From the NCBI RefSeq assembly GCF_037968635.1, contig NZ_JBBKVV010000104.1:86-64085 (forward strand): DNA of 64,000 nt, written 5' to 3'. Position 1 is the first letter of the stretch. Each line of letters begins with the position of its first letter. The notes beneath the pieces are model-generated. The model was not told where the DNA came from. It did no database searches and worked only from the letters and a program-made list of their open reading frames with translations. The stretch is from Phenylobacterium sp. GTDB lineage: Bacteria; Pseudomonadota; Alphaproteobacteria; Caulobacterales; Caulobacteraceae. The position numbers and the translations under genes were made by a program. Below are positions 1,553 to 26,501 of this stretch, piece after piece.

Positions 1553-4102
1553 TCATCGCTGGCGCTCACGCTCCTGCTCCCGGCCACGAATGCGTTCGCG
1601 TTCTGGAGGGCGCCTCATCTCCCGCTGCAGGTTCTCAATTCCACGCACGGCCCTACCCGTCGCGCCGCGAGCGGCCACCTCGCGCAGTGTCGGATCAATG
1701 CTGAAGGCGGCCGAAATTTCTCTGGAGGATCCAGGCTGCGCTTCTTCGAGCTTCCCGCGGCTGAACTCCAACATCTCTTGAAGCTCAGGCCGTGGCTCCC
1801 GGCCCCTGGATCGCGCCCGGGCGATCTCACCAGAAGCCCTCGCGAACGCCTGCAGTGCGCTTCCAAAACCCCGATCAGAGTTCACGGTCTGACCGTCCCT
1901 GTTGCCGCCAAACCCGAGGTAGTCGGACGCCATGTCCTTTCGCCGTTCGCGACCGAGACTGCTCGCAAGCTGCTCGTCGGAGGAAAAATCCTGTCGGCTG
2001 TAGTGCAGGGAGACTGACTGGCGGTGGCGCGAGAGCGCCACGTAGGCGGCATGGCTGTCCATGTGCTCTGTGGCGAGGACATAGCTGCGATCGACCGTGA
2101 CCCCCTGCGCCTTGTGAACGGTGGCCGCGTAGCCGTGATCAAGATCGGCGTAGTCCTTGAAGTCGAACGTGACGGACCGACCATCGTGGAGGCGCACAGT
2201 CGCACCTGACTTGGTTAGCTCGATAAGGTCACCCAAGGCCCCGTTCTTCACTCCGAGTGACCGCTCATTTCGCAGGAACATCACGCGGTCCCCCTGCGCC
2301 ATCATCCGCTCGCCGTGCACGGTCTCGACAGGCAGATCTTCGCCAAGACCGCCCATTCCTCGCACCTGCGCTCGCGCGAGTTGGTTGAGAGCCGCGACAT
2401 CCTTCCGAGTGTAGGTGAGGATCATCTGAGAGCTGTTGGAATCTTCCCGTCGATCTCGTGCCCAGCCGGCGATCAGGGAGGTACGCGCGTCGGCTATCTC
2501 GTCATGCGCATGGACAGCGTCAGCCTCCGCATAGCGCGCCAGCGCGACGTCAGTACGACCGGTTGCAAGCTCGCGGGTGGCCTGCCTCTGCCAATCGTCC
2601 CGCTGCCGTCGAACCTGGGTGATCTCGACTGCGCCATGACGCTCGGCTAGCGCCCGAAATGCAGCTCCGGCCTCGATGGCCTGCAGCTGCTGCGGGTCGC
2701 CAACAAGGACGACCTTCGCGCCGGCATCGCGCGCCTCGCCGAGCACACGCTGCATCTGCCGTGAACCGACAAGACCTGCCTCGTCGACCACGAGTATGTC
2801 CTTGTCGGTCAGCAATTCGCGACCTCGCGCCCAAGCGTGCTCAAGACTCGCGAGTGTCCTTGAGTTGATACCCGACCCCGTCTCCAGGCTCTCCGCCGCG
2901 ATACCTGAGAGGGCGCCTCCAAGGACCTTGTAGCCCTCCCCTTCCCAGGCGCGCCGAGCCACGGCGAGCATGCTGCTCTTGCCCGAACCCGCGTACCCCA
3001 CGACCAAGGCGAGATCGGTGTCGCCCGTGACATGGCGTAGGGCGGAGGCCTGTTCGGCAGAGAGAGTCAGCCCTCGGCCTTCCGAGTACCGAGCAGCCTC
3101 CCTCGCAATGGCGGGCGAAACACGATGCCCATTGCGGACGTCCAAGTCCGCTGCCGACGTCTCCAATTGCGCTTCGACCTCGACCATCTCTCGCGTCGTG
3201 AAGCGTTCCTGTCCGGCTCCATCGCGCCCGAGGTAGCCCAGGTCGGGCGCGCTCCAGACAGCGGCAAGCGCCCGGTCGAACTGGGCTTTGTCATCCGTGT
3301 GCCGGTGGATGAACCGTGACACGTCCTGCCGCGTGAAGGTGGCTTGGTGATGGGTGATCGCCTCCAATGCGATGCTCGGCTCTGCGATGATCCTCTCGCC
3401 GTTTCGCCTGGCGATTTCGCGATGATCTTGCGCCCGCTCGGCGTCCTCCCCTCTCCCCTCTCGACGGGATCCCGCGGCGCCGATTTTATGCTGCGGCTCA
3501 AGGTCAATTCCCTGCGCCTCCAACGACCTGTGATCGACACGGGCATTGATATCGAGCTCAGCCAGTCGCCGGTTGAGGTGGCCTTCCCAGGCCTCCCGCC
3601 AGTGTTCCAAAAGCTCTGTCTGGTTCCAGGCGCGAACCTTTGCGCCGAAACCGTCAGGCGTTGCCTCCCGCATGGCTAGCATCACATGCGCATGCGGTCT
3701 GGCTTCGCCATCCGCACCAATGTCCCAGTGCACGTTGAGGTCGGCCACCATGCCGCGATGGACAATTTCGTTTTGTACGAAGTCGCGCGCCAGGCCGACG
3801 GCGTCGGCCTGGCCAATCTCCCGCGGCAGGGCGAACTCTACCTCGCGGGCAAGCTGGGCATCCTTGCGCTTCTCCGCGACCTCGACCTCGTTCCACAGCG
3901 TCGCGCGGTCTGCCCATCGCTCCGGCGCGCCGTCGGGCGTCAGGATCTCCGAATGAACGACGCCGGCCTTGTTGGTGAAGTCGTGCGCGCGATCGAGCCG
4001 GTCATCATGCAGACGAGAGGCGGCGCGGTAGGCCGCCGCAGCCACGGCGCTCGAGCCTTTGGCCCGGCTGATGACTTTGGCGGAGAAGTGGTAGATCGCC
4101 AT
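1553..4102 (-). CDS. traA: Ti-type conjugative relaxase/helicase TraA (MobA/MobL MOBQ relaxase + RecD-like helicase)
   Basis: N-term 'MAIYHFSAKVISR...AAAAYRA', HUH 'PHAHVML'; helicase Walker A 'GYAGSGKS', 'VVDEAG', 'HGYAATVHKAQG'. Confidence 0.95.
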   Translation of the reverse strand: MAIYHFSAKVISRAKGSSAVAAAAYRAASRLHDDRLDRAHDFTNKAGVVHSEILTPDGAPERWADRATLWNEVEVAEKRKDAQLAREVEFALPREIGQADAVGLARDFVQNEIVHRGMVADLNVHWDIGADGEARPHAHVMLAMREATPDGFGAKVRAWNQTELLEHWREAWEGHLNRRLAELDINARVDHRSLEAQGIDLEPQHKIGAAGSRREGRGEDAERAQDHREIARRNGERIIAEPSIALEAITHHQATFTRQDVSRFIHRHTDDKAQFDRALAAVWSAPDLGYLGRDGAGQERFTTREMVEVEAQLETSAADLDVRNGHRVSPAIAREAARYSEGRGLTLSAEQASALRHVTGDTDLALVVGYAGSGKSSMLAVARRAWEGEGYKVLGGALSGIAAESLETGSGINSRTLASLEHAWARGRELLTDKDILVVDEAGLVGSRQMQRVLGEARDAGAKVVLVGDPQQLQAIEAGAAFRALAERHGAVEITQVRRQRDDWQRQATRELATGRTDVALARYAEADAVHAHDEIADARTSLIAGWARDRREDSNSSQMILTYTRKDVAALNQLARAQVRGMGGLGEDLPVETVHGERMMAQGDRVMFLRNERSLGVKNGALGDLIELTKSGATVRLHDGRSVTFDFKDYADLDHGYAATVHKAQGVTVDRSYVLATEHMDSHAAYVALSRHRQSVSLHYSRQDFSSDEQLASSLGRERRKDMASDYLGFGGNRDGQTVNSDRGFGSALQAFARASGEIARARSRGREPRPELQEMLEFSRGKLEEAQPGSSREISAAFSIDPTLREVAARGATGRAVRGIENLQREMRRPPERERIRGREQERERQR

Positions 4103-4135
4103 CCCGGCGCTCCCCGCAGGTTGATCTTAAAGCGA

Positions 4136-4184
4136 CGTCGGCACGACGTATAAGCGCGCCCTCCCGACTTTCGGTCGGTCGGGA
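4136..4184 (+). other. oriT with MOBQ-type nic site
   Basis: ACGTATAAGCGCG^CCCT at 4146-4162 matches the RSF1010/pSC101/pTi-type nic core TAAxTGCG^CCCT. Flanking inverted repeats are CGTCG/CGACG (4136-4148) and TCCCGAC/GTCGGGA (4162-4184). It lies between divergent traA and traC/D. Confidence 0.8.
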
Positions 4185-4292
4185 TTTTCAGGGAATACGC
4201 AGTCCTACCCGGTCAGAGCCCGTAGCCTTACGCGTCGCGCGCTAGGCGAGAGCGCGCGAAACTCTTCCGCATGCACAGCTGCGGAGTTGGCC

Positions 4293-4595
4293 ATGCGAAA
4301 ACCTCGAGACATAGATGCCGAGCTGCAGGCTCTGGCCGAACGGGCCAAGGGCCTGAAGAGCCGCAAGGTGAGCCAGCTGGGGGAACTGGCGATCGCCACC
4401 GGAGCCGACGCTCTGTCGGTTGAAGTGTTGGCCGGCGCCCTACTCGCGGCGGCCAAGACCCGTGATGAGACCGCGATCACCACGTGGCGCCGACAGGGAG
4501 AAGCCTTCTTTCGGCGGACGGCCACACGTCGCGTTGGGGCGGGCGCTGGCCAGGACACTGACAGCGCTACGCCGCACCCTGGCTCAGAAACATAG
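4293..4595 (+). CDS. Relaxosome accessory protein, TraC/TraD-like
   Basis: 'MRKPRDIDAELQALAERAKGLKSRKVSQLGELAIATGADAL', divergent from traA in the pTi-like traCDG arrangement. Confidence 0.75.
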   Translation: MRKPRDIDAELQALAERAKGLKSRKVSQLGELAIATGADALSVEVLAGALLAAAKTRDETAITTWRRQGEAFFRRTATRRVGAGAGQDTDSATPHPGSET

Positions 4596-4635
4596 AGCTG
4601 AAGCCTTGCAGGCCAGAACTGAGACAAGGACCTGG

Positions 4636-4878
4636 ATGGCGGCGCGGCGCGAACGAACACGCCATCTGATCGAACTCGGCGGCTTGGTGCAGAAGGCGGG
4701 ACTGGTCGAACTCACGGACGACGACCGCGCCGTATTGCTTGGCGCATTCCTAGCTGTCGCCCAGATGTTGTCAGGGGAGCAGAGACAGGCGGCCTTGGCC
4801 AACTGGCGCCACTCTGGCCGGCGGGCGTTTCAGGCTCACGCCATGGCGGTTGCCGAGCGAGATCGGACCGAGCCATGA
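4636..4878 (+). CDS. traD: Conjugal transfer protein TraD-like
   Basis: 'RRERTRHLIELGGLVQKAGL' resembles the pTi TraD motif. ATGA overlap with traG. Start uncertain. Confidence 0.75.
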   Translation: MAARRERTRHLIELGGLVQKAGLVELTDDDRAVLLGAFLAVAQMLSGEQRQAALANWRHSGRRAFQAHAMAVAERDRTEP

Positions 4879-6446
4879 AGTACTTGCGACTAGCCGTTTG
4901 GCTGATCGTCGGCTTCTTCGGTGGAAGCCTGCTCATGAACATCGCGCTCTATGCGGCGCGGTTCGCTGGACACCCCATTTGGCCAGCCTGGCTGCTTCCG
5001 CTCCAGGTGGCCGGAGAGGTTCTCGGCGCATTCTCTGGCTATCTTTGGTGGCGGTTCAAGAACCGACCGCTTCGGTCGGACGTCCATGGTTCGGCGCACT
5101 TTCAAGGCGCCAAGATCACCAGGGCCACCCTCGGGGTGAGTCGCGGCCTCATTGTCGGTCGCGACAGACGCGGGGAACTTTTGCGTTACGACGGACCCGC
5201 GCACCTGCTGACAATTGCACCGACCCGATCTGGCAAGGGCGTCGGCGCGATCATCCCGAACTTGCTCACGACGGACTACTCGATCCTTTGCATCGATCCG
5301 AAAGGCGAGAACGCCCGCATCACGGCTCGCGCACGTGCGTTGCGCGGCCCAGTGCATGTCCTCGATCCGTTTGGAATCTCGGGTGAGCCCTGCGCGGCGT
5401 TCAATCCACTGAGCCGGTTGGACCCGGCCGGTGTCGACCTAGCGGAAGACGCGGCAATGATCGCCGATGCTTTGGTCTACGACCCGCCCGGCCAGGTGAG
5501 TGAGGCGCACTGGAACGAGGAGGCCCGCGCGCTCATCGCCGGGCTCATTCTCCACATTGTGACGAACCGATCTCCCGCCCACCGGTCGCTTGCAGCGGTT
5601 CGCGCCCTCCTCACTACCACGCCTGAGAAGTTCGATCAGGCGCTCTTTGACATGCAAGGTAGCTACGCTGCTCGCGGTCTCGTGGCCCGCGCCGCCAACC
5701 GGCATCTCAGCAAGAGTGAACGTGAGGGCGCGGGCGTTCTGTCGGCCGCTCAGAGGCACACCCACTTCCTCGACAGCCCGCGCATGGTACGGGTGCTGCA
5801 GAAGTCCGACTTTGCTTTTAGCGATCTCAAGCGAGGGCCAACCAGCGTCTTCCTGGTGCTGCCACCGGAGCGCCTGGCGACGCATGCTCGCTGGCTGCGG
5901 CTGTTGGTAGTCCAGGCGATCGGTGAGTTGGCGCAGACGCAGGCGAAGGATGCGCCACCACCGCATCCCGTTCTGATGATGCTTGACGAGTTTGCGGCGT
6001 TGGGACGCGTCGAACCTGTCGAGCGTGCCTTCGCACTGATGGCCGGCTACGGCCTGCAACTCTGGGCGATCCTGCAGGACCTCCATCAATTGAAGGGCCT
6101 GTACGGAGAACAGGCTGGAAGTTTCCTATCCAACGCTGGCCTGATCCAGGTCTTCAATGTCGCTGACATCGACACCGCGACCTGGGTGTCCCGCACCCTT
6201 GGCGCAGCGACGGAAGTGTTCAACACGATGTCGTGGGCGGAACGGCCGGAGTCCCGACCTTGGTGGCGGTCTTACACGCCCACAACGACGCTCAACCTCA
6301 GTCGCCGAGACCTCATGACGCCCGACGAGGTGATGCGTCTGGGTCAGGAAGAGTTGCTACTCCTGCGCCCTGGCATGTCGCCCGTGGTGGCGCAGAAGGT
6401 TCGCTACTATCGGGACCAGCAGTTTGCGGGCCTCTTCGATGCATAG
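4875..6446 (+). CDS. traG: Type IV coupling protein TraG/VirD4
   Basis: N-terminal TM segments, Walker A 'APTRSGKG', 'IDPKGE', Walker B 'MMLDEFAALG', 'ILQDLHQL', 'LMTPDEV'. Confidence 0.93.
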   Translation: MKYLRLAVWLIVGFFGGSLLMNIALYAARFAGHPIWPAWLLPLQVAGEVLGAFSGYLWWRFKNRPLRSDVHGSAHFQGAKITRATLGVSRGLIVGRDRRGELLRYDGPAHLLTIAPTRSGKGVGAIIPNLLTTDYSILCIDPKGENARITARARALRGPVHVLDPFGISGEPCAAFNPLSRLDPAGVDLAEDAAMIADALVYDPPGQVSEAHWNEEARALIAGLILHIVTNRSPAHRSLAAVRALLTTTPEKFDQALFDMQGSYAARGLVARAANRHLSKSEREGAGVLSAAQRHTHFLDSPRMVRVLQKSDFAFSDLKRGPTSVFLVLPPERLATHARWLRLLVVQAIGELAQTQAKDAPPPHPVLMMLDEFAALGRVEPVERAFALMAGYGLQLWAILQDLHQLKGLYGEQAGSFLSNAGLIQVFNVADIDTATWVSRTLGAATEVFNTMSWAERPESRPWWRSYTPTTTLNLSRRDLMTPDEVMRLGQEELLLLRPGMSPVVAQKVRYYRDQQFAGLFDA

Positions 6447-6522
6447 TCGGACTGACGACCGCAACTCGCGATTGGACCGGGAGCAGCTTGTCACCTCCCC
6501 CGGCTCAGGCGACATACATGAG

Positions 6523-7443
6523 ATGAAGACCAGTCTGGATCACCTACCGGCGGGCAAGCGACGCGAGCTCGAACTCGTCGTGGAGATCCTGGCGGCATCA
6601 TTTGCAAAGGCAGTTGCGGATCGAAAGGTCGACCGTCTGAAGAACGGCAAGATCCTGAAAATCATCCTATTTGGATCGTATGCTCGCGGGGACTGGGTCG
6701 AGGATCCGGTCGGACGTTACTTCTCTGACTTTGACTTACTCGTGGTGGTGGACGACGACGATCTAGCCGACACGGTTGAGTTCTGGGATATCGCTGAGGC
6801 TCGCCTGCTTAAGGAGCTGTCGGCTGGCAAAGTCCTTCGGACACCGGTCAACTTCATCGTCCACAGCCTGCAGGATGTGAACCACCAGCTTGAGCGTGGT
6901 CGCTACTTCTTCGTCGATATCGTCCGCGACGGCGTCCTGCTGCTTGACGTCCCAGGTCACCCTCTCACCACTCCGAAGGATCTGGCCCCAGCAACGGCGC
7001 TCGACGAAGCGAAGGGGTATTTCGACCAATGGCTGGAGAGCGCCGCAGACTTCGAGGATCAGGCTACCTACGCGGTTTCGAAAGGTAGGCTCAAAAACGC
7101 AGCCTTCCAAATGCATCAGGCGGCGGAGCATTTCTACAACTGCGTTCTGCTGGTTCTAACCCTCTACACACCAAAGTCCCACAATCTAGTGCGCCTTCGA
7201 AATCTGGCCGAGCCACTTGACCCTCGCCTGATCGCCGTCTGGGCCTTCGACACAAAGTTTGAAAAGCGCTGCTTCGAGTTGTTGCGCGCGGCGTACATCA
7301 AGGCGCGCTACTCGCGGCACTTCAAAGTCACGGCGGACGAGTTGGAGTGGCTCGGTCAGCGGGTGGCAGCGTTAAAGACAGCGGTCACAGCCGTTTGTGA
7401 GGAGCGGTTAGAAGCGTTGGAAACGCAGATCGCTGCCGAATAG
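6523..7443 (+). CDS. Fused minimal nucleotidyltransferase (MNT) + HEPN domain protein
   Basis: 'LFGSYARGDW...SDFDLLVVV' NTase motif followed by HEPN-like 'AAFQMHQAAE...PKSHNL...AYIKARY'. Start taken at MKTSLDHLP. Confidence 0.88.
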   Translation: MKTSLDHLPAGKRRELELVVEILAASFAKAVADRKVDRLKNGKILKIILFGSYARGDWVEDPVGRYFSDFDLLVVVDDDDLADTVEFWDIAEARLLKELSAGKVLRTPVNFIVHSLQDVNHQLERGRYFFVDIVRDGVLLLDVPGHPLTTPKDLAPATALDEAKGYFDQWLESAADFEDQATYAVSKGRLKNAAFQMHQAAEHFYNCVLLVLTLYTPKSHNLVRLRNLAEPLDPRLIAVWAFDTKFEKRCFELLRAAYIKARYSRHFKVTADELEWLGQRVAALKTAVTAVCEERLEALETQIAAE

Positions 7444-7648
7444 GTCGCTTGTGCGCCAGCAGCCGACATTGGCGCGCCTCCGGAAACCGGACGTTCAGAT
7501 TGCGGGCACGCGACGTTTTTGTAACAGGCTGAGTGAGGGGGGCCCGCTGCGGCCTAGGCCATCACCCGCCGTTCGCGCCGCCTCTCTCCCGCTCGGCCTT
7601 TCCCACAATCCGGCGAAAACGAAAGTCCAGGCACCGCGGACTTTTTCC

Positions 7649-10600
7649 TCAGGGCTCGTAAGGTTCCAGATCCTTCGCCTTTGGCTTGGAAGTGCCAGGA
7701 TAGGACTGCCGCAGCCGCCGAGCGAGATCGCCCAGCCCGTCCTTACGTGTCAGCGCCGTCTCGACCAGTAGGGCTGCGGCGCGTCGTGGGGTCCCGCCCG
7801 CCTTCAGACCCTTGCGAAGATTGGGTTCGAGCTTGGCGAGGTCGAGCTCTGCGAGCGTAGCGTCGAATGTCTCGGGCGCGATGGTCCGAACAAGCCTCAC
7901 TACCGATACGAAATGAGGCTCATCCTTTGCGGGCCCCTCAGTCAGGGCCTTGACGAGGTTCTTCTTCGCGCAGGCATAGGCCGGCCCGAAAAGTTCGCGC
8001 CGGTCCTGGGCGACATAGCCAAGCACACCGAACGTGAAGCTCCAGTGGTGGCCAAACTCAATTGCTCTGCCGGCCTCCAGATGCTGTAACGCGACCTTGG
8101 GAGCAATCACCGCGAGCCGCGCGGGCATGACATTGATCTCGTCGGCCCGCTCCCCGATCACAGCCCTGATGGCGGCCAATGGCCGCTTGCCGCGACAGCA
8201 GATCCCCAGCAAGTGCTCGGCCTCGCGGAAGAGATGCGACCAATCCTCGCCGATGGTGTTTCCCAGTTGCTTCCAGTCCAACGCCAGGACGGTCGCCTCA
8301 TAGATTTTCGGCGCAGCCTTGCTCAGGAAGAGCAGCAGGTAACCGGCTTGCTGGAAATTACGGGTCTCGGTAGCCGACAGCTGCCCCGCCAGAACCGCCG
8401 GCTCGAAGCCCTCGCACAGCCGGGCGGCCAACGCCTTATGACGGGCGCGAGGCGCATACTTTCCGGTATAGGCGCCGAGGATGTCGAGAATCCTCAAGGT
8501 CTGGTGGGCGATGTCGTCGAGCTGGTGAAAGGTGTCGACTGGGCTAGCCTTCAGGAGCGTCACAGCCATAGGCGTCACGGCCTCGACCATGTCGAGCCCC
8601 AGATCCTCGTCAAACCATCCGGTCGACTTGGTGAGATTGGAATAGGCGCCGATCCAGACGTCCTGCGGCCACTCACGCCCCAATCGCTTCAGCGCTTCTC
8701 GGTCCACGGCGGCGCTGAACCTGGCTTTCCAGGCCTCTGGCCATGCGTTGCCCGTGAAGCTGATGTATTCGCCAAGGTGGTATGCACTCTGAGGTGCGGC
8801 GGCCGACACGCTCGCGGCCGCCTTCTCCGGATCGGCGGCCTCGAAAAGGGCTTCCACGATGGCAGAGCTGTCACGCATGGCATTGATCAGCCGGCGAACC
8901 CCGTAGCCCATTGGCTCCAACGGCGCCTCGATCCAGCGCGGTAGAAGTTCAAGGCCGTCGGCCAAGAGGATCTCGAACGGTGTCTGGTTTAGGTAGTGAA
9001 GTTCGACCAGGATCAGGCTGGCGAAGGTTCGCTCTTCAGGATCCTTAGCGGCCCAGCATCGCGCCACGAGCCGCTTCTCGACCTCCGGATCCATCTCGTA
9101 GAGCCATTGATTGTCCCAACGGACCTGACGCATCTCGTCCAGGAACAGCCGAAGGCCGGCGAGCGGATGGACCGGATCGCCGAGCGTCGCATCGAGGAGG
9201 CGACTAAAGGCTTGCCGCTCCTCGCCCTCCTGCAAAGCCATGATCCGCCGGATGGCCACCGACGCGAACCGCTGGTGAGGTGTGCGCAGGTCCGAAGGGC
9301 CCAGGAGCAGCCGTTCATCAACCAGCCAGTCAATCGCGTTGTCGATGGTTCCCGTCTGCAGCCCTGCGACCGCGAGCAAGACCTCGAACTCGGCCCGTTC
9401 GGGCCTAGCGTCGCGAGAGGCCAGTTGGCACATGGCCGCGGCGGCCAGCACGAGGTCCGCGCCCTTGGCTCGTGCGGCCCGCGCCGCATCCGAGGCTCTC
9501 GCCTCCCCGCCGCCGAGAATGAAGCAAAACTGCCAGGGGAGCTCGGCATGGGTCTCGGCAAAGTCTAGGCGGCGGTCTAGGGACTCTTCGAACGGCTTGT
9601 CCCCTATCCGGCTATCGGCGCTCCGGACCGCCGCTAGGGTCGCGGCCCGGTCGCGCCGCAGCTCGGCGGCGATCACCTGGACCGCGCGCTTGGGGTCCAT
9701 GACGATCGCGCCGCGGCCGGCCCCGCCGTGGCCCAAGGCGTTGTGGGTCGACAGCAGCAGTCGGTCCTGACGAGTCTCGCTCTCGGCCAAAGCCAAGAGA
9801 TGCGGGGCAGTTAGGTGAGCGTCGTCGATGAGGCAGAGTACCTTGCCGGCGGCGGGCGGCCAGTCGATGACCGGAGCCCGAGGATCGGTCATCTGGAACA
9901 CCTTCCAACCGTCGTCGGCGAAGGCCTTGGCTGCTTGCCAGGCGCAGACCGACTTGCCCGCGCCTGGCTGGCCTTCCAAGCGAGAAGAGTACGCGCGGCG
10001 AAGATCGGCGACCGCTGCGTTAGCCTCGGGCAAGGTTGGACAGGCCAAGACGTCTGACGGGCCGAGCCCTCGCCCCATCAGCGCCGGGCCAAGATCTCGC
10101 GACTGCGCGAAGGTCACTCGTCGCCAGTAGGCATGGGTTGGCGCGGGGGACGGCGCCTGGGCCAGGTGCTTGATGTCCTCCCGCAGGCCCCTGATCTCGT
10201 CGGCAGAGACCGCCTTGAGTGCGGGCGCGAGGGCCGAGAGATCAAGGCCAAGCTCGCCATAGAACTGGTCGAGCACCTGGGGGTGGGCGACGAGAAGGCC
10301 GCAGATATCCTCCCAGCCGAGAATACGGACCGGAAAGGCGCCCCCGGCGACGCGCGCTGCCGAAATCTCGCGTAAGGCTTCCTGCAGCTTGGCGTCGGCA
10401 GGCGCGGTGGTGGCGAAGGTCCAGTGGCTGAGCTCCGGGGCGAAAGTTTCGGCCTTGGCCAGTTCGCGTCTGACCTCGGCGATCGTGGCCCTGGTGCCGT
10501 AGGTTCCGTCCTTGCCCTTGCACTGGACGCCGAAGAAAGTCTCGTCACGCCCGGCGGGAGCCCCCCAGACGTCGACACCGGCCTGGGCCTGGCCGCCGCG

Positions 10601-22619: not shown

Positions 22620-23117
22620 CTACGACTCCACTGCGCCGCGCAGCCCCCTGAAGGTCTTCACCCTATGAACGCGGGCAAGCATCCGGGTGAGGAGCTTGGA
22701 CTCCTCCTGCGGTTCCCCGTTCTCCCCAGCGATCGCCTCGTCGTCACGCCAGGCGTCTGGATTGGCTTTGATCGACGCACAGATTCGCACCTTCGCGACT
22801 TCCAGCGACATTGGCGGCCGCTCCGCGAGTTCGTGTTCGAGCGCATAGTTGCTCTGCTGGAATACGAACCTGACGATGCGGCCCAGGAAGGATCCAACAA
22901 TCCCGAGATTCCTGACGCCGACGACCTCCCAGCTTCGCCCCGTCGCGTCGACCAGGATCATGCCGCGTCGAGCATCGTGCTTGATGTCCCACTGCGTGCC
23001 CGTCGAGAAATCTTCGTCCGATCCAAACCACGCAAGCCGCTCGCGTCCCGCGATCGCGTGGCCGCCAACGTCCTTGCCGAACGCCAACAAGGGGTACTTG
23101 AAAGGAAGGCCCGTCAC
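22620..23117 (-). CDS. Putative immunity protein for the upstream nuclease toxin
   Basis: GTG start overlaps the toxin stop (GTGA); ~165 aa; no recognisable family. Confidence 0.55.
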   Translation of the reverse strand: MTGLPFKYPLLAFGKDVGGHAIAGRERLAWFGSDEDFSTGTQWDIKHDARRGMILVDATGRSWEVVGVRNLGIVGSFLGRIVRFVFQQSNYALEHELAERPPMSLEVAKVRICASIKANPDAWRDDEAIAGENGEPQEESKLLTRMLARVHRVKTFRGLRGAVES

Positions 23118-23791
23118 TTCGAGCGCCTGCCTTGCTCTGCGGCCCCCATGGCCGGATGACCGACGGCCGAGCCCGTCGCCCACTTCGACCAAGCCGGCGT
23201 TCCGTACCAGTAGCGTTGCGCCGGCTTGAACTGCGGCTGACCGCCGTATCGACCGTGGATACGCCCGTGGACCTGCGGGCTTGGCATCGGCTTGATGTTC
23301 CAGGGCTGGTTCTTGATGAAATCCGGAACAGCCTTACCCCAGCCCTCGTTTTGTGGGATCGCCCAATGGTGGCCGTGCTGGCCAGGCTTCAGAAACTTCT
23401 GCTCGCCCATCCAGGTTCGGACATTCCCTTTCCACCCGTAAGGAGCCGCCCGCCTAGTCGCCTTGTTTGCGATGAAGACCCCGCCCTTCACCAGTCCTTT
23501 GCCAAGCGAGCCTGCGACAGCCAGATCGGACACCGCCAGCGCTCCATTCAGGCCGGCTCCGATATAGTCGCCGTCTTCGAAATCCGCCAACGCCTCACGG
23601 CCAGATCCCCACACTGGGATAAGGGACTCCAGTTCGCCGGGATGGCCAATCCGGCCACCGCTTCCCGACTTCATTTCAGGCTCACCCGCCGCCCGCGCAT
23701 TGTTCGCGGCCTGACGGCGGATCATCTCGTCATAGTCTTCGTCATTAATGTCGGGGACGGAACGCGGCTCCCCGTTCGGCATACGCGCCAT
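23114..23791 (-). CDS. Short polymorphic-toxin-like protein with pre-toxin motif and GHH/HNH-fold nuclease tip
   Basis: 'IPVWGSGREA...GAGLNGALAVSD' pre-toxin-like segment, then 'QHGHHW...NQPWNIKPM...VHGRIHG'. AAAGGTGAG RBS. Confidence 0.7.
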   Translation of the reverse strand: MARMPNGEPRSVPDINDEDYDEMIRRQAANNARAAGEPEMKSGSGGRIGHPGELESLIPVWGSGREALADFEDGDYIGAGLNGALAVSDLAVAGSLGKGLVKGGVFIANKATRRAAPYGWKGNVRTWMGEQKFLKPGQHGHHWAIPQNEGWGKAVPDFIKNQPWNIKPMPSPQVHGRIHGRYGGQPQFKPAQRYWYGTPAWSKWATGSAVGHPAMGAAEQGRRSK

Positions 23792-24127
23792 GCAAACTCA
23801 CCTTTTCTGACCAGAAAAACGCAAATCCCCATAAGACCGGCGCGCCCGGCGACGATCTCTTCCGCACGCTCAAGCTACACTCCAAGTCTCATCGTGGGCA
23901 CTTATGCACTTGAGATACCACGTCGGCGGCCCTAGACTGATTCGGACAGGCCGGCGCTCGCTAGATTTTTCGGTAGGGAAACCTTTACCGACTCATTACC
24001 TTTTGGAGTTGCGTGCGACGCGGTGAATCTCCAGGCCGTAGCCCTGTCCTTAGAGCTTTAACGTTGGGCTCTTCTGAGATGGGTGAGCTTTGTGGGGGAC
24101 AACGATATGGAGTCCCCACCACGCACT

Positions 24128-24149
24128 AGGGGGCGGCTTCGGCCGCCCC
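24128..24149 (-). terminator. GC hairpin immediately after the stop of the 24150-24554 gene
   Basis: GGGGCGGC-TTCG-GCCGCCCC stem-loop. No clear U-tract. Confidence 0.45.
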
Positions 24150-24554
24150 TCACTTCTTCAAGTCTCGCAAGACCGGAAAGCGGCGCATCTTGCTCCGCAC
24201 CTGCGGCCACTCCGTCTTGTGGAACGTGACCACGAACAGCAAGCGCCTTTCGTTGCAGCGCTTGACCGTCACGCGAAACCACTTGTTCCAGACGTACTCA
24301 TCAAAGTGCAGGAAGACGAGATGTTGGTCGCCGTCGCGCACGACAGCTCCCTGATCAATCGTTTCGTCCAGCATCGGAAAATGGTTCGGAAGAAGTTGGT
24401 GCTCCTGAACGCACTTCACCGCGTACGAGTGTTCTATCCGCACGACATTGGAAGCCGCGCCTAGGTGCTCGGTTAGGTTGGGAGACAGCTGCGCTAGCTG
24501 GATAGTTCTGCCTCGACCCCTGCGTATGAAGCTATCCCAGTCCCGAACATTCAT
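24150..24554 (-). CDS. IS passenger; hypothetical protein, possibly BECR-fold (PBECR/RelE-like) RNase
   Basis: 134 aa; beta-rich C-terminus 'HLVFL...WFRVTVK...LFVVTFHK' resembles BECR-fold nucleases. Confidence 0.45.
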   Translation of the reverse strand: MNVRDWDSFIRRGRGRTIQLAQLSPNLTEHLGAASNVVRIEHSYAVKCVQEHQLLPNHFPMLDETIDQGAVVRDGDQHLVFLHFDEYVWNKWFRVTVKRCNERRLLFVVTFHKTEWPQVRSKMRRFPVLRDLKK

Positions 24555-24598
24555 GGGCTATGGCATAACTGAACTTTCACGGTGCGGAAGGGGCTAGC

Positions 24599-24742
24599 GT
24601 GACGGACAGCCAAGACGACATCTCGGAAGAGGAAGCCGCTCGCCGTCGCGACGAAGTCGTGAAGCGGATGCTGGCAACGCCGCCGCAACCGCGAGATCCA
24701 AAGAAGGGGCGCGAGCCGAAGCCCGCGCCGAAAATGAAATGA
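24599..24742 (+). CDS. IS passenger; 47-aa small protein (not in ORF track)
   Basis: GTG...MTDSQDDISEEEAARRRDEVVKRMLATPPQPRDPKKGREPKPAPKMK-TGA. From recall, a similar motif occurs in alphaproteobacterial IS1595 elements. Confidence 0.55.
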   Translation: MTDSQDDISEEEAARRRDEVVKRMLATPPQPRDPKKGREPKPAPKMK

Positions 24743-24806
24743 GACACCTAAGGCTCCGTCTTGCGCTTTGGATTGCGCGCCGTCTGGGCGTCAGCGTGTT
24801 CCCCGA

Positions 24807-25112
24807 TCAAGCCCACTTCGTGAAGGGCATCATCTTGAAGAGGTCCTGATCGGTGATTGCGCCGATAGCCCGAGCGCTCTTGAAGAGCGGCATACCCAGC
24901 AGGGCGAGGTCGGTACTGACGTCGATCTCACCACTGATGATGGCGGCGACTTCATCGATATTCTGCTGAGCTTGGAAGAGGATGAACGACGTAGGCTCGA
25001 CCCACCACGGCATGGTGGCGATGCTGCCAACGGCGCCTGTTAGGCCGTCATAGCGGGCGGTGTGATTGCCGACTTGGGCAATCCTGAAGGTCAACCAGTA
25101 GAGGTTTGACAT
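24807..25112 (-). CDS. IS passenger; small ferredoxin-fold (Cas2/VapD-like) hypothetical protein
   Basis: 101 aa 'LYWLTFRI...RYDGLTGAV...WWVEPTSFILF' beta-alpha-beta pattern. AAGG RBS. Confidence 0.45.
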   Translation of the reverse strand: MSNLYWLTFRIAQVGNHTARYDGLTGAVGSIATMPWWVEPTSFILFQAQQNIDEVAAIISGEIDVSTDLALLGMPLFKSARAIGAITDQDLFKMMPFTKWA

Positions 25113-25325
25113 AAAGGCATCCTTGTTTGGGTGCCTGCGTGGGTTGACCGTCTAGGGTGACTCAGAGAGTATCCCTTTGCCTTCGGCCCGCCCCACACAG
25201 GCGGTTTCGGAACGCCCGGTCGACGTTGGCGCGTCGCCGGGCACTACCCGTCTAGGGTGATTCACGATCCGTTCCGAGTCCCAAGGTGCCGCTTCGCCTG
25301 AAGCTTCCGCGCCTTCTGCTTCCGG

Positions 25326-26276
25326 CTACGCGGCTTTACGAGGCTGTCGGTAGGTCAGGCGCTTGCCGACCACGCCGCGCACGGCCTCGTCGGCTCGCAT
25401 GCTGTCGGTGATCCCGAGGCCCGAGCGGTTCGAGTAGCGGAAATCGAACTCCACTAGATAACGCGAGAGGTGCGCTTCCGAGACGTGGTGGAACGTGCCG
25501 GTGATCCCGCGCTTGAGGATCGAGAAGTAGTTCTCGACCGTGTTGGAGTGATGCAGGCCGTGGCGGACATACTCGCCAGCGGCGTGATCGACGGCGCTGT
25601 GAGCGGCGAACTCCTTGCCAACCGCTGGGTACATGCGGGCGCCGTCCGTCATCAGGTGAGAGGCCCGGTCGGCGGTCTTGACGATGATCGGGCGCAGGGT
25701 CTTCGCCGTGACGTTGGCGACGTGGAAAGAACGGGCGCGACCGCCGCGCTCAACGAGGGTGATCACGGCTTCCTTGCGGCCGAACATGTCGCGCGAGTTG
25801 CGCTTGTTCTTGTGCTTGTTGGCCTCTTTGCCGCCCACGTAGGTCTCATCGACCTCAACGAACTTGCCTTCGCCGCCCAGCGGGGACGGTTCGGCGGGCA
25901 GGTTCATCGCCTCGCGGATGCGGTGCGCCATGAACCAGGCCGTCTTGTAGGAGCCGAAGCCGAGCATCCGGAACAGTTGGTGAGCGCTGATCCCCTTCTT
26001 TGACGAGCACATCAGGTGCGTCGCCAGCAGCCACTTATGCAGCGGGATATGCGAGCGCTCGTAAACCGTGCCCATCGTGGCGGTGAACGGCTTGCGGCAT
26101 TCCTTTTCCTTGCACTTGAACAGACCCGGACGGGTTGTGCGGCCCTTCATCTCCGTGGCGTTATCGACCACGCCGCAATGCGGGCAGACCGGACCATGCG
26201 GCCAGCGCAGCGCTTGGAAGTGAGCGCGGGCGGCGTCTTCATCGTGGAAAATCGGGGCGGTCAGGTCGGTAGACAT
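25326..26276 (-). CDS. IS1595-family DDE transposase
   Basis: Zn ribbon 'CPHCG...FKCKEKECRK', HTH 'KKGISAHQL', catalytic 'VEVDETYVGG', 'LMTDG', 'HSNTVENYFSILKR', 'YLVEFDFRYS'. Confidence 0.97.
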   Translation of the reverse strand: MSTDLTAPIFHDEDAARAHFQALRWPHGPVCPHCGVVDNATEMKGRTTRPGLFKCKEKECRKPFTATMGTVYERSHIPLHKWLLATHLMCSSKKGISAHQLFRMLGFGSYKTAWFMAHRIREAMNLPAEPSPLGGEGKFVEVDETYVGGKEANKHKNKRNSRDMFGRKEAVITLVERGGRARSFHVANVTAKTLRPIIVKTADRASHLMTDGARMYPAVGKEFAAHSAVDHAAGEYVRHGLHHSNTVENYFSILKRGITGTFHHVSEAHLSRYLVEFDFRYSNRSGLGITDSMRADEAVRGVVGKRLTYRQPRKAA

Positions 26277-26501
26277 CGGGTTTCTCGCTTGTTGAGAAAA
26301 CCCTATCAAATCAATCGTGGTATCTCAAGTGCATAAGTGCCTCATCGTGTCCAGAACATAACAAGAACTTCTGACGGCGCCTGGACGCCGCAGCGCTCAA
26401 CAAATGAACAGGCGGCCGCCATCGTGGTCCCGAACGCCCACCGTCATTGCCACCGGTCCCCACACGCCTAAGCTCCAAGGGCCAACCCTGGGGACTTCCA
26501 C

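Follow-up and report, generated by a model that had tools for sequence, protein, structure and literature searches.

Polymorphic toxins are usually recognized by the delivery apparatus to which they are fused, and the question raised by one locus of Phenylobacterium sp. is what a gene can be that resembles the tip of such a toxin and stands on its own, followed by a gene for a possible immunity protein. The locus lies in a stretch of 64,000 nucleotides (the window; NCBI RefSeq assembly GCF_037968635.1, contig NZ_JBBKVV010000104.1, positions 86 to 64,085 of the forward strand) and consists of an open reading frame (ORF) of 225 amino acids (aa), here called the toxin, and a coupled ORF of 165 aa, here called the partner. 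An earlier note on the window described the two as an orphan nuclease toxin-immunity pair with no delivery domain, and offered two possibilities, a displaced tip cassette or a compact toxin exported by an undescribed route. The pair is probably a functional cassette belonging to a polymorphic toxin system specific to Phenylobacterium, in which a leader tag, a pre-toxin module of the type found in Rhs proteins and a putative nuclease domain resembling the His-Me finger are joined in one protein and an immunity protein is encoded by the next gene.

The two ORFs, the ribosome-binding site (RBS) of the toxin and the coupling of the genes are as the earlier note had them (Table 1). The GTG start codon of the partner (23117-23115) overlaps the TGA stop codon of the toxin (23116-23114), and of about 22 homologous loci 19 have a 4-nt overlap of stop and start (ATGA, GTGA or TTGA); because this overlap is conserved, the GTG start is preferred over a longer frame of 190 aa that begins with TTG and over the annotated call of 155 aa. 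The toxin ORF is not a product of chance, since it has more than 327 homologous clusters at E≤1e-3, nearly all of them 210-240 aa long (the length of the family being steady at about 220 aa), unnamed and devoid of Pfam domains. Toxin homologs in named genomes belong nearly all to Phenylobacterium or Caulobacteraceae, and sampling of the order found the toxin in 11 of 19 Phenylobacterium genomes versus none of 12 from other genera. The genome to which the window belongs has a single copy, and nothing else in it matches the toxin; degraded copies occur in other genomes. Alignments of the family contain three conserved blocks separated by variable linkers, which correspond to a leader, a helical module and a C-terminal domain.

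The leader was recognized in a whole-genome search in which the first ~45 residues of the toxin matched alone inside other open frames. A profile of the leader only (alignment A5) finds it in 117 of 197 Phenylobacterium genomes, with one to four copies in each. The sequences fused to it, as read from 30 sampled loci (L108-L137) plus L106 and L107, are of at least four types. The majority have the same pre-toxin module and GHH-like domain as the toxin of the window. The second type, at six distinct loci (L107 and L125 are the same place), is an Endonuclea_NS_2 domain (Pfam E 4.7e-16), and the gene that encodes it is followed, with the same 4-nt overlap, by an immunity gene of the SUKH/SMI1_KNR4 type (E 1e-12). 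The third type is an uncharacterized region of 290 aa, followed by an overlapping gene of 140 aa, and the fourth is rich in glycine and alanine and hydrophobic. An example of the fourth type is the 221-aa cargo at L136:967-1632 on the minus strand, which resembles a membrane-active toxin. Because the genus attaches the leader to several unrelated toxin cargos, the sequence evidence is best explained if the leader is a trafficking or recognition tag, which is its most likely function. The statement that the toxin has no delivery domain therefore has to be revised: residues 1-45 are a conserved leader with the architecture of a trafficking domain. Rhs, VgrG and PAAR domains and a signal peptide are indeed lacking, as had been noted, insofar as the toxin itself is concerned (it has no Pfam match, and the rest of the window is not annotated). 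The leader has no sequence match to a Pfam family; the N-terminus of the toxin is charged and proline-rich, with no hydrophobic segment, no lipobox and no signal peptide, and the AlphaFold2 (AF2) model has a helix at residues 17-34. Polymorphic toxins in the sense of Zhang/Aravind (2012) are arranged in this way, with one N-terminal region in common and C-terminal toxin domains that can be exchanged. In eight other proteins (P0069, P0078, P0097, P0098, P0137, P0145, P0185, P0192), module and domain are the same but come after another conserved N-terminal region (..AAFMARRRRQ..AYGxAIRxGQDLxLxxPSD..), which may be a second class of leader.

The segment IPVWGSGR...NGALAVSD, which had been called a pre-toxin element on first reading, proves to be one, and together with the GHH...N..NI...H...H pattern it makes up the most conserved columns of the family. 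Outside the genus the module lies within proteins of 1,500-2,600 aa that contain, according to Pfam, RHS-repeat and in some cases DUF6531 or SpvB-TcdB-RHS domains. Such RHS and SpvB-TcdB-RHS proteins come from Acidobacteriota, Bacteroidota, Planctomycetota, Actinomycetota and Verrucomicrobiota; in every case the module starts a few residues past the DPxGL motif that ends the Rhs core, and differing C-termini come after it. Because of this placement after DPxGL and the diversity of what follows, the module is regarded as a portable unit that opens the released fragment of an Rhs protein. It is found together with the C-terminal domain of the toxin in 105 of 144 representatives. Its AF2 model has amphipathic helices rich in glycine and alanine. 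Identity with the PT-TG pre-toxin domain (PF14449) was considered and rejected, as the Pfam model matches neither the window protein nor the Rhs proteins that bear the module; a search of eight genomes for PT-TG gave nothing above the cut-off. A metagenome-assembled genome (MAG) of Chitinophagales contains a 289-aa protein that opens with the module (L046:5372-8058), 18 nt upstream of a VgrG gene (Phage_GPD and Phage_base_V domains), and the module may travel with a type VI secretion system (T6SS) in Bacteroidota.

The C-terminal domain, searched with a profile of residues ~103-225 (A3), is found in 616 representative clusters (50% identity) at E≤1e-3, always at the C-terminus. Several of the carriers are proteins of 1,367-2,025 aa with RHS, teneurin-like YD-shell, DUF6443 or DUF6531 domains in Pfam, so that this domain, like the module, is also a tip of Rhs proteins. 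Among 27 sequences there is no variation at H141, H142, N161, H175 and R177 and almost none at N165; among 140 diverse sequences conservation is 90% or higher at H141, H142, N161, N165 and H175. In the AF2 model the domain has a predicted local distance difference test score (pLDDT) of 92-98, with strands at residues 140-142 (which include both adjacent histidines) and 166-168 (following N165) and a helix at 172-179 (which includes H175). The placement of H141, H142, N165 and H175 on these predicted strands and helix is the layout of a His-Me finger, and we infer that the domain is a metal-dependent nuclease. The domain has no detectable sequence or structure similarity to an established member of the His-Me finger group (HNH/EndoVII), and neither a solved His-Me finger nor any other structure in the PDB was matched by the toxin. 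The description of the tip as a GHH-type HNH nuclease is tentative. The published signature of Tox-GHH2 consists of s[AGP]HH and HxxxH (PMC3482391), and the window protein has GHH at residues 140-142 and H175-x3-H179, but position 179 varies (H, T, E or N) across the family; the polar asparagine and the use of the domain as an Rhs tip are further points of resemblance to Tox-GHH2 and Tox-GHH. Membership is not borne out: the Pfam models of those families match no member, and no His-Me structure was matched. Only one member of Tox-GHH2 was found in 401 genomes, which is too few for a profile, and when this protein (at L138) was compared as a single sequence, only PGQxGHH was aligned.

DUF2380 (PF09533) is the sole recurring weak signal in Pfam, with four of 140 members matching below the cut-off (best E 0.012). 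Alignment by hhalign of the toxin domain to DUF2380, represented by pMF1.20 and 30 myxobacterial members, gave P 0.0065 with HH, NI and HxRIH in register, compared to P 0.46 for the reversed control; reciprocal searches with hidden Markov models gave E 0.0015-0.03 in small databases, which is marginal. DUF2380 is the family of the SitA6 lipoprotein toxins of myxobacteria (PMC12077181), and for its plasmid-borne member pMF1.20 both nuclease activity and an immunity partner have been reported (PMC6091211). The two families have in common the order of motifs, HH(I/W)xxPQ ... (I/W)N(I/V) ... H(A/G)R(I/L)H, a length of about 230 aa and an immunity gene directly after the toxin gene. They differ in that SitA has a lipoprotein signal and is passed on by outer-membrane exchange, neither of which applies to the window protein, and in that the window toxin carries a module of the Rhs type, which DUF2380 proteins do not; there is no match at the curated cut-off. 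The link of the toxin domain to DUF2380/SitA6, drawn from sequence comparison, is weak and suggestive.

The downstream gene bears out the reading of the locus as a toxin-immunity pair, being both conserved and translationally coupled. A word-based search with the partner gave only three proteins, and its homologs were gathered from the loci instead. At 22 loci a homolog of this partner (type A) comes directly after a toxin homolog, and at 19 of these the two genes overlap by 4 nt. The partner in the window is soluble and strongly acidic, with the conserved sequence ASIxANPDDWRDDEAIAGE (alignment A6), and its confident AF2 model (pLDDT 86, predicted template modeling score 0.79) has no match in the PDB. 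It belongs to a new family, as had been anticipated, with no match in Pfam, NCBIfam, PADLOC, PHROG or the PDB. Among other clades of the toxin the partner is of another class: a transmembrane (TM) protein with DUF1963 at 14 loci, a multi-pass membrane protein of the DUF805 family at three loci, or a protein with a signal peptide, similar to lipoproteins, at two loci. The TM+DUF1963 partners are about 300 aa long with an N-terminal membrane span and follow a divergent clade of toxins, often with a 4-nt overlap (L016, L018-L024, L026, L028, L031, L033, L034, L039); DUF1963 was scanned in two of them (E 6e-27 in L016, E 4e-26 in L019), and the other 12 were grouped with these by BLAST. The DUF805 partners (L001:8703-9161, L027:8608-9057, L032:8665-9126) occupy the place of the immunity gene after toxin homologs, and the L027 and L032 genomes have no type A gene, only the DUF805 partner. 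To our knowledge, DUF805 is not an established immunity family. At L001 and L002, both syntenic with the window and with toxins 76-81% identical to the one encoded there, the partner differs: L002 has a type A partner and L001 has DUF805 instead. An adjoining downstream immunity gene whose class changes with that of the toxin (type A, TM+DUF1963, DUF805, lipoprotein-like or SUKH) is a further hallmark of polymorphic toxins. At L042:8001-8740 and L048:8001-8680 (Phenylobacterium sp. LjRoot225), a C-terminal remnant of the toxin lies beside an intact type A partner, in the manner of orphan immunity genes, and a stop codon interrupts the partner gene at L008.

Assembled from these parts, the proposed mechanism is one in which the ~45-residue leader, common to several toxin cargos, would act as a tag for trafficking or recognition; the ~60-residue helical module would help the toxin to reach its target compartment; and the C-terminal domain would cleave nucleic acid as a metal-dependent nuclease of His-Me-finger-like architecture, for which H141 and H142 of the first strand, N165 by the second one and H175 from the helix are the predicted catalytic and metal-binding residues. 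The soluble acidic partner of 165 aa would bind the toxin and block it in the producing cell.

Table 1. Features of the toxin-immunity cassette and the adjacent insertion element, in window coordinates
Feature	Position	Strand	Description
Toxin gene, 225 aa	23114..23791	minus	ATG start; leader, pre-toxin module and GHH-like C-terminal domain
Shine-Dalgarno-like AAGGTGA	23798..23804	minus	6 nt 5' of the toxin ATG, read from the sequence
Partner (immunity) gene, 165 aa	22620..23117	minus	GTG start; acidic ASIxANPDDWRDDEAIAGE motif
GTGA overlap of toxin stop and partner start	23114..23117	minus	translational coupling, predicted from the sequence
Leader, residues 1-45	23657..23791	minus	MARMPxGxPRSVPD and charged helix 17-34; alignment A5
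Pre-toxin helical module, residues ~46-106	23474..23656	minus	GHPGxxESLIPVWGSGREAxADFxxGDYxGAxLNGALAxSDL...
C-terminal toxin domain, residues ~115-212	23156..23449	minus	GHHW-x18-N-x3-N-x9-H-x-R; predicted beta-beta-alpha core
IS1595 element	23887..26347	minus	context, outside the system; match to IS1595 transposase

The cassette lies between genes for an aminotransferase and an ArsR regulator, as it does in L001 and L002, and because the chromosomal site is the same in all three it is considered a resident gene and not debris. The G+C content is 57-64% across 22.5-26.4 kb, compared to about 69-71% in the flanks. Part of this region is the IS1595 segment, which L002 (Phenylobacterium ferrooxidans HK31-G) precisely lacks at its syntenic site, the flanks meeting there at 7897/7906; from this absence it follows that the insertion of IS1595 took place ~95 bp upstream of the start of the toxin gene. 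No conserved neighbor was found across four long contexts of the cassette. Elsewhere in the same genome, outside the window, contig C11 has a 2218-aa open frame with RHS repeats and a Sec-type signal peptide (1997-8650, plus strand), the tip of which is without the ESLIPVWGSGR module. The other strand of this contig has another frame with RHS repeats (C11:2-1882).

Export of the toxin is not by a contractile injection system: the T6SS sheath protein TssC (PF05943) and the sheath of phages and extracellular contractile injection systems (eCIS; PF04984) are absent from the genome of the window, which is 99% complete, and from 30 relatives, although many of the genomes are incomplete MAGs and the absences are soft to that extent. 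Flagellar FlhA is nearly universal and so uninformative, and the leader is still present in six of nine FlhA-negative genomes. The leader resembles the N-terminal trafficking tags of other systems, namely MIX and FIX of the T6SS, LXG of the type VII secretion system and the packing signals of eCIS cargo, in that a short N-terminal element is combined with interchangeable toxin cargos, each with its immunity gene; it is unlike them in that their machines are absent or not applicable, as neither TssC nor a sheath of phages or eCIS occurs in the 31 genomes. When Pfam, signal peptides, TssC and other sheaths, VirB4 and C39 are considered, the N-terminal domain is not assignable to a known secretion pathway.

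Several observations weigh against the interpretation of the pair as a working nuclease toxin with its immunity protein. Toxin and partner have no match in Pfam, NCBIfam, PADLOC or PHROG, and scans of 24 and of 140 toxin members found no Pfam nuclease family. The Tox-GHH (PF15636) and Tox-GHH2 (PF15635) models have no match among roughly 160 members, Tox-GHH2 has none in a six-frame search of the genome of the window, and the second histidine of HxxxH, H179, is replaced by T, E or N in parts of the family. The DUF805, TM+DUF1963 and lipoprotein-like partners are membrane-bound or exported, which is unexpected if the toxin is a cytoplasmic DNase. No secretion genes recur beside the cassette in the four long contexts; the C39-peptidase transporter is absent from the genome of the window and has no association with the leader (odds ratio 0.80, p 0.52); and VirB4 of the type IV secretion system (T4SS) is present in this genome and likewise has no association with the leader (odds ratio 0.87, p 0.75). 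Co-occurrence of N-terminal homologs with a secretion system or a phage tail locus, which the earlier note had envisaged, was accordingly not found for VirB4, C39 or, in the 31 genomes, a sheath. Finally, the insertion of IS1595 may have cut the native promoter of the toxin gene.

Because partners in the membrane would be surprising for a DNase of the cytoplasm, a reading in which the domain is not a nuclease, or in which immunity acts at the step of entry, has been kept alive. The pair would then still be a secreted toxin with its immunity protein, and either the domain would act on the envelope or membrane, its histidine and asparagine residues serving some other chemistry, or the hydrophobic helical module would do the damage. 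We consider the non-nuclease reading improbable, even though three of the four partner classes (TM+DUF1963, multi-pass DUF805 and lipoprotein-like) are membrane-bound or exported, the L027 and L032 genomes hold a DUF805 partner only, neither a nuclease family nor a solved nuclease structure was matched, and the helices of the module are amphipathic and rich in glycine and alanine. The invariant HH-N-H pattern falls exactly on the predicted beta-beta-alpha unit and is in line with the published Tox-GHH2 signature; the weak alignment to DUF2380, which has a nuclease-active member, puts HH, NI and HxRIH together; the partner in the window, a soluble protein of strongly acidic character, resembles nuclease inhibitors; and the module occurs with many unrelated C-terminal domains, hence is not itself the toxin.

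Slightly less probable still is an intracellular module for addiction or abortive infection, in which the toxin would never be exported, the partner would be an antitoxin and the leader would have a regulatory role, for example in controlled proteolysis or partner binding. Such a function would agree with the failure to link any secretion system by context or co-occurrence, with the position of the cassette in an islet of lower G+C beside an insertion sequence and in a window that has other defence and toxin-antitoxin modules, and with the DUF2380 pair pMF1.20/pMF1.19, which acts in post-segregational killing on a plasmid (PMC6091211). The gene order, however, is toxin followed by immunity gene, no DNA-binding antitoxin domain was detected, and there is no PADLOC match; Rhs proteins, which are exported, have the module and domain at their tips; and some partners have signal peptides or membrane spans, which indicates a toxin arriving from outside. 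Moreover, SUKH and DUF1963, two of the partner families, are typical immunity types of polymorphic toxins.

The displaced Rhs tip, which would be a silent toxin-immunity reserve to be recombined into a full-length rhs gene and not used on its own, is very improbable and was rejected: homology of module and domain to Rhs C-terminal fragments does open right at the position after cleavage, the genome has an Rhs gene on contig C11 and other genomes have degraded toxin copies, but there is no Rhs core or DPxGL upstream of the module at which to recombine, the Rhs tip of the same genome is unrelated and without the module, no part occurs there a second time, the gene is not beside rhs in any of the four contexts read (an orphan Rhs tip would be downstream of a full rhs gene and retain a piece of the core), the length of the family is stable at about 220 aa, and to the gene belong an ATG and an RBS of its own as well as a 45-aa leader, kept in 117 genomes and common to cargos not of the Rhs type. 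Of the two possibilities in the earlier note, the compact toxin with an undescribed export route is the one supported, by the absence of T6SS and eCIS sheaths and by the lack of co-occurrence of the T4SS and C39 with the leader.

Understood as a stand-alone cassette, the pair is to be compared to the C-terminal fragments of Rhs proteins (PMC3482391). Its module and domain are homologous to the part that is released after DPxGL, and the immunity gene comes directly after. The differences are that Rhs shell, PAAR, VgrG and signal peptide are all missing here, that a leader of 45 aa stands in for a delivery apparatus of more than 1,000 residues, and that the genus is without a T6SS sheath. A further-reaching proposal, which we put forward tentatively and regard as possible but on the unlikely side, is that the leader marks cargo for an undescribed route of interbacterial export or delivery in a genus without T6SS, eCIS or injectisome-type apparatus, and that the module is a portable device for membrane entry. 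If so, a membrane-entry module would also explain why some of the immunity partners are membrane proteins, as these could intervene during entry.

None of the four parts, whether leader, pre-toxin module, toxin domain or immunity protein, is represented in current family libraries. The toxin domain adds a large uncatalogued clade to the known tips of Rhs proteins, and because the module stands at the start of Rhs toxin fragments in at least five phyla, its function would bear on how Rhs toxins in general reach their targets. The leader is common in a genus that lacks the usual delivery machines, and so may provide a handle on how small toxins leave one cell and enter another without a T6SS, contact-dependent inhibition (CDI) or a contractile particle.

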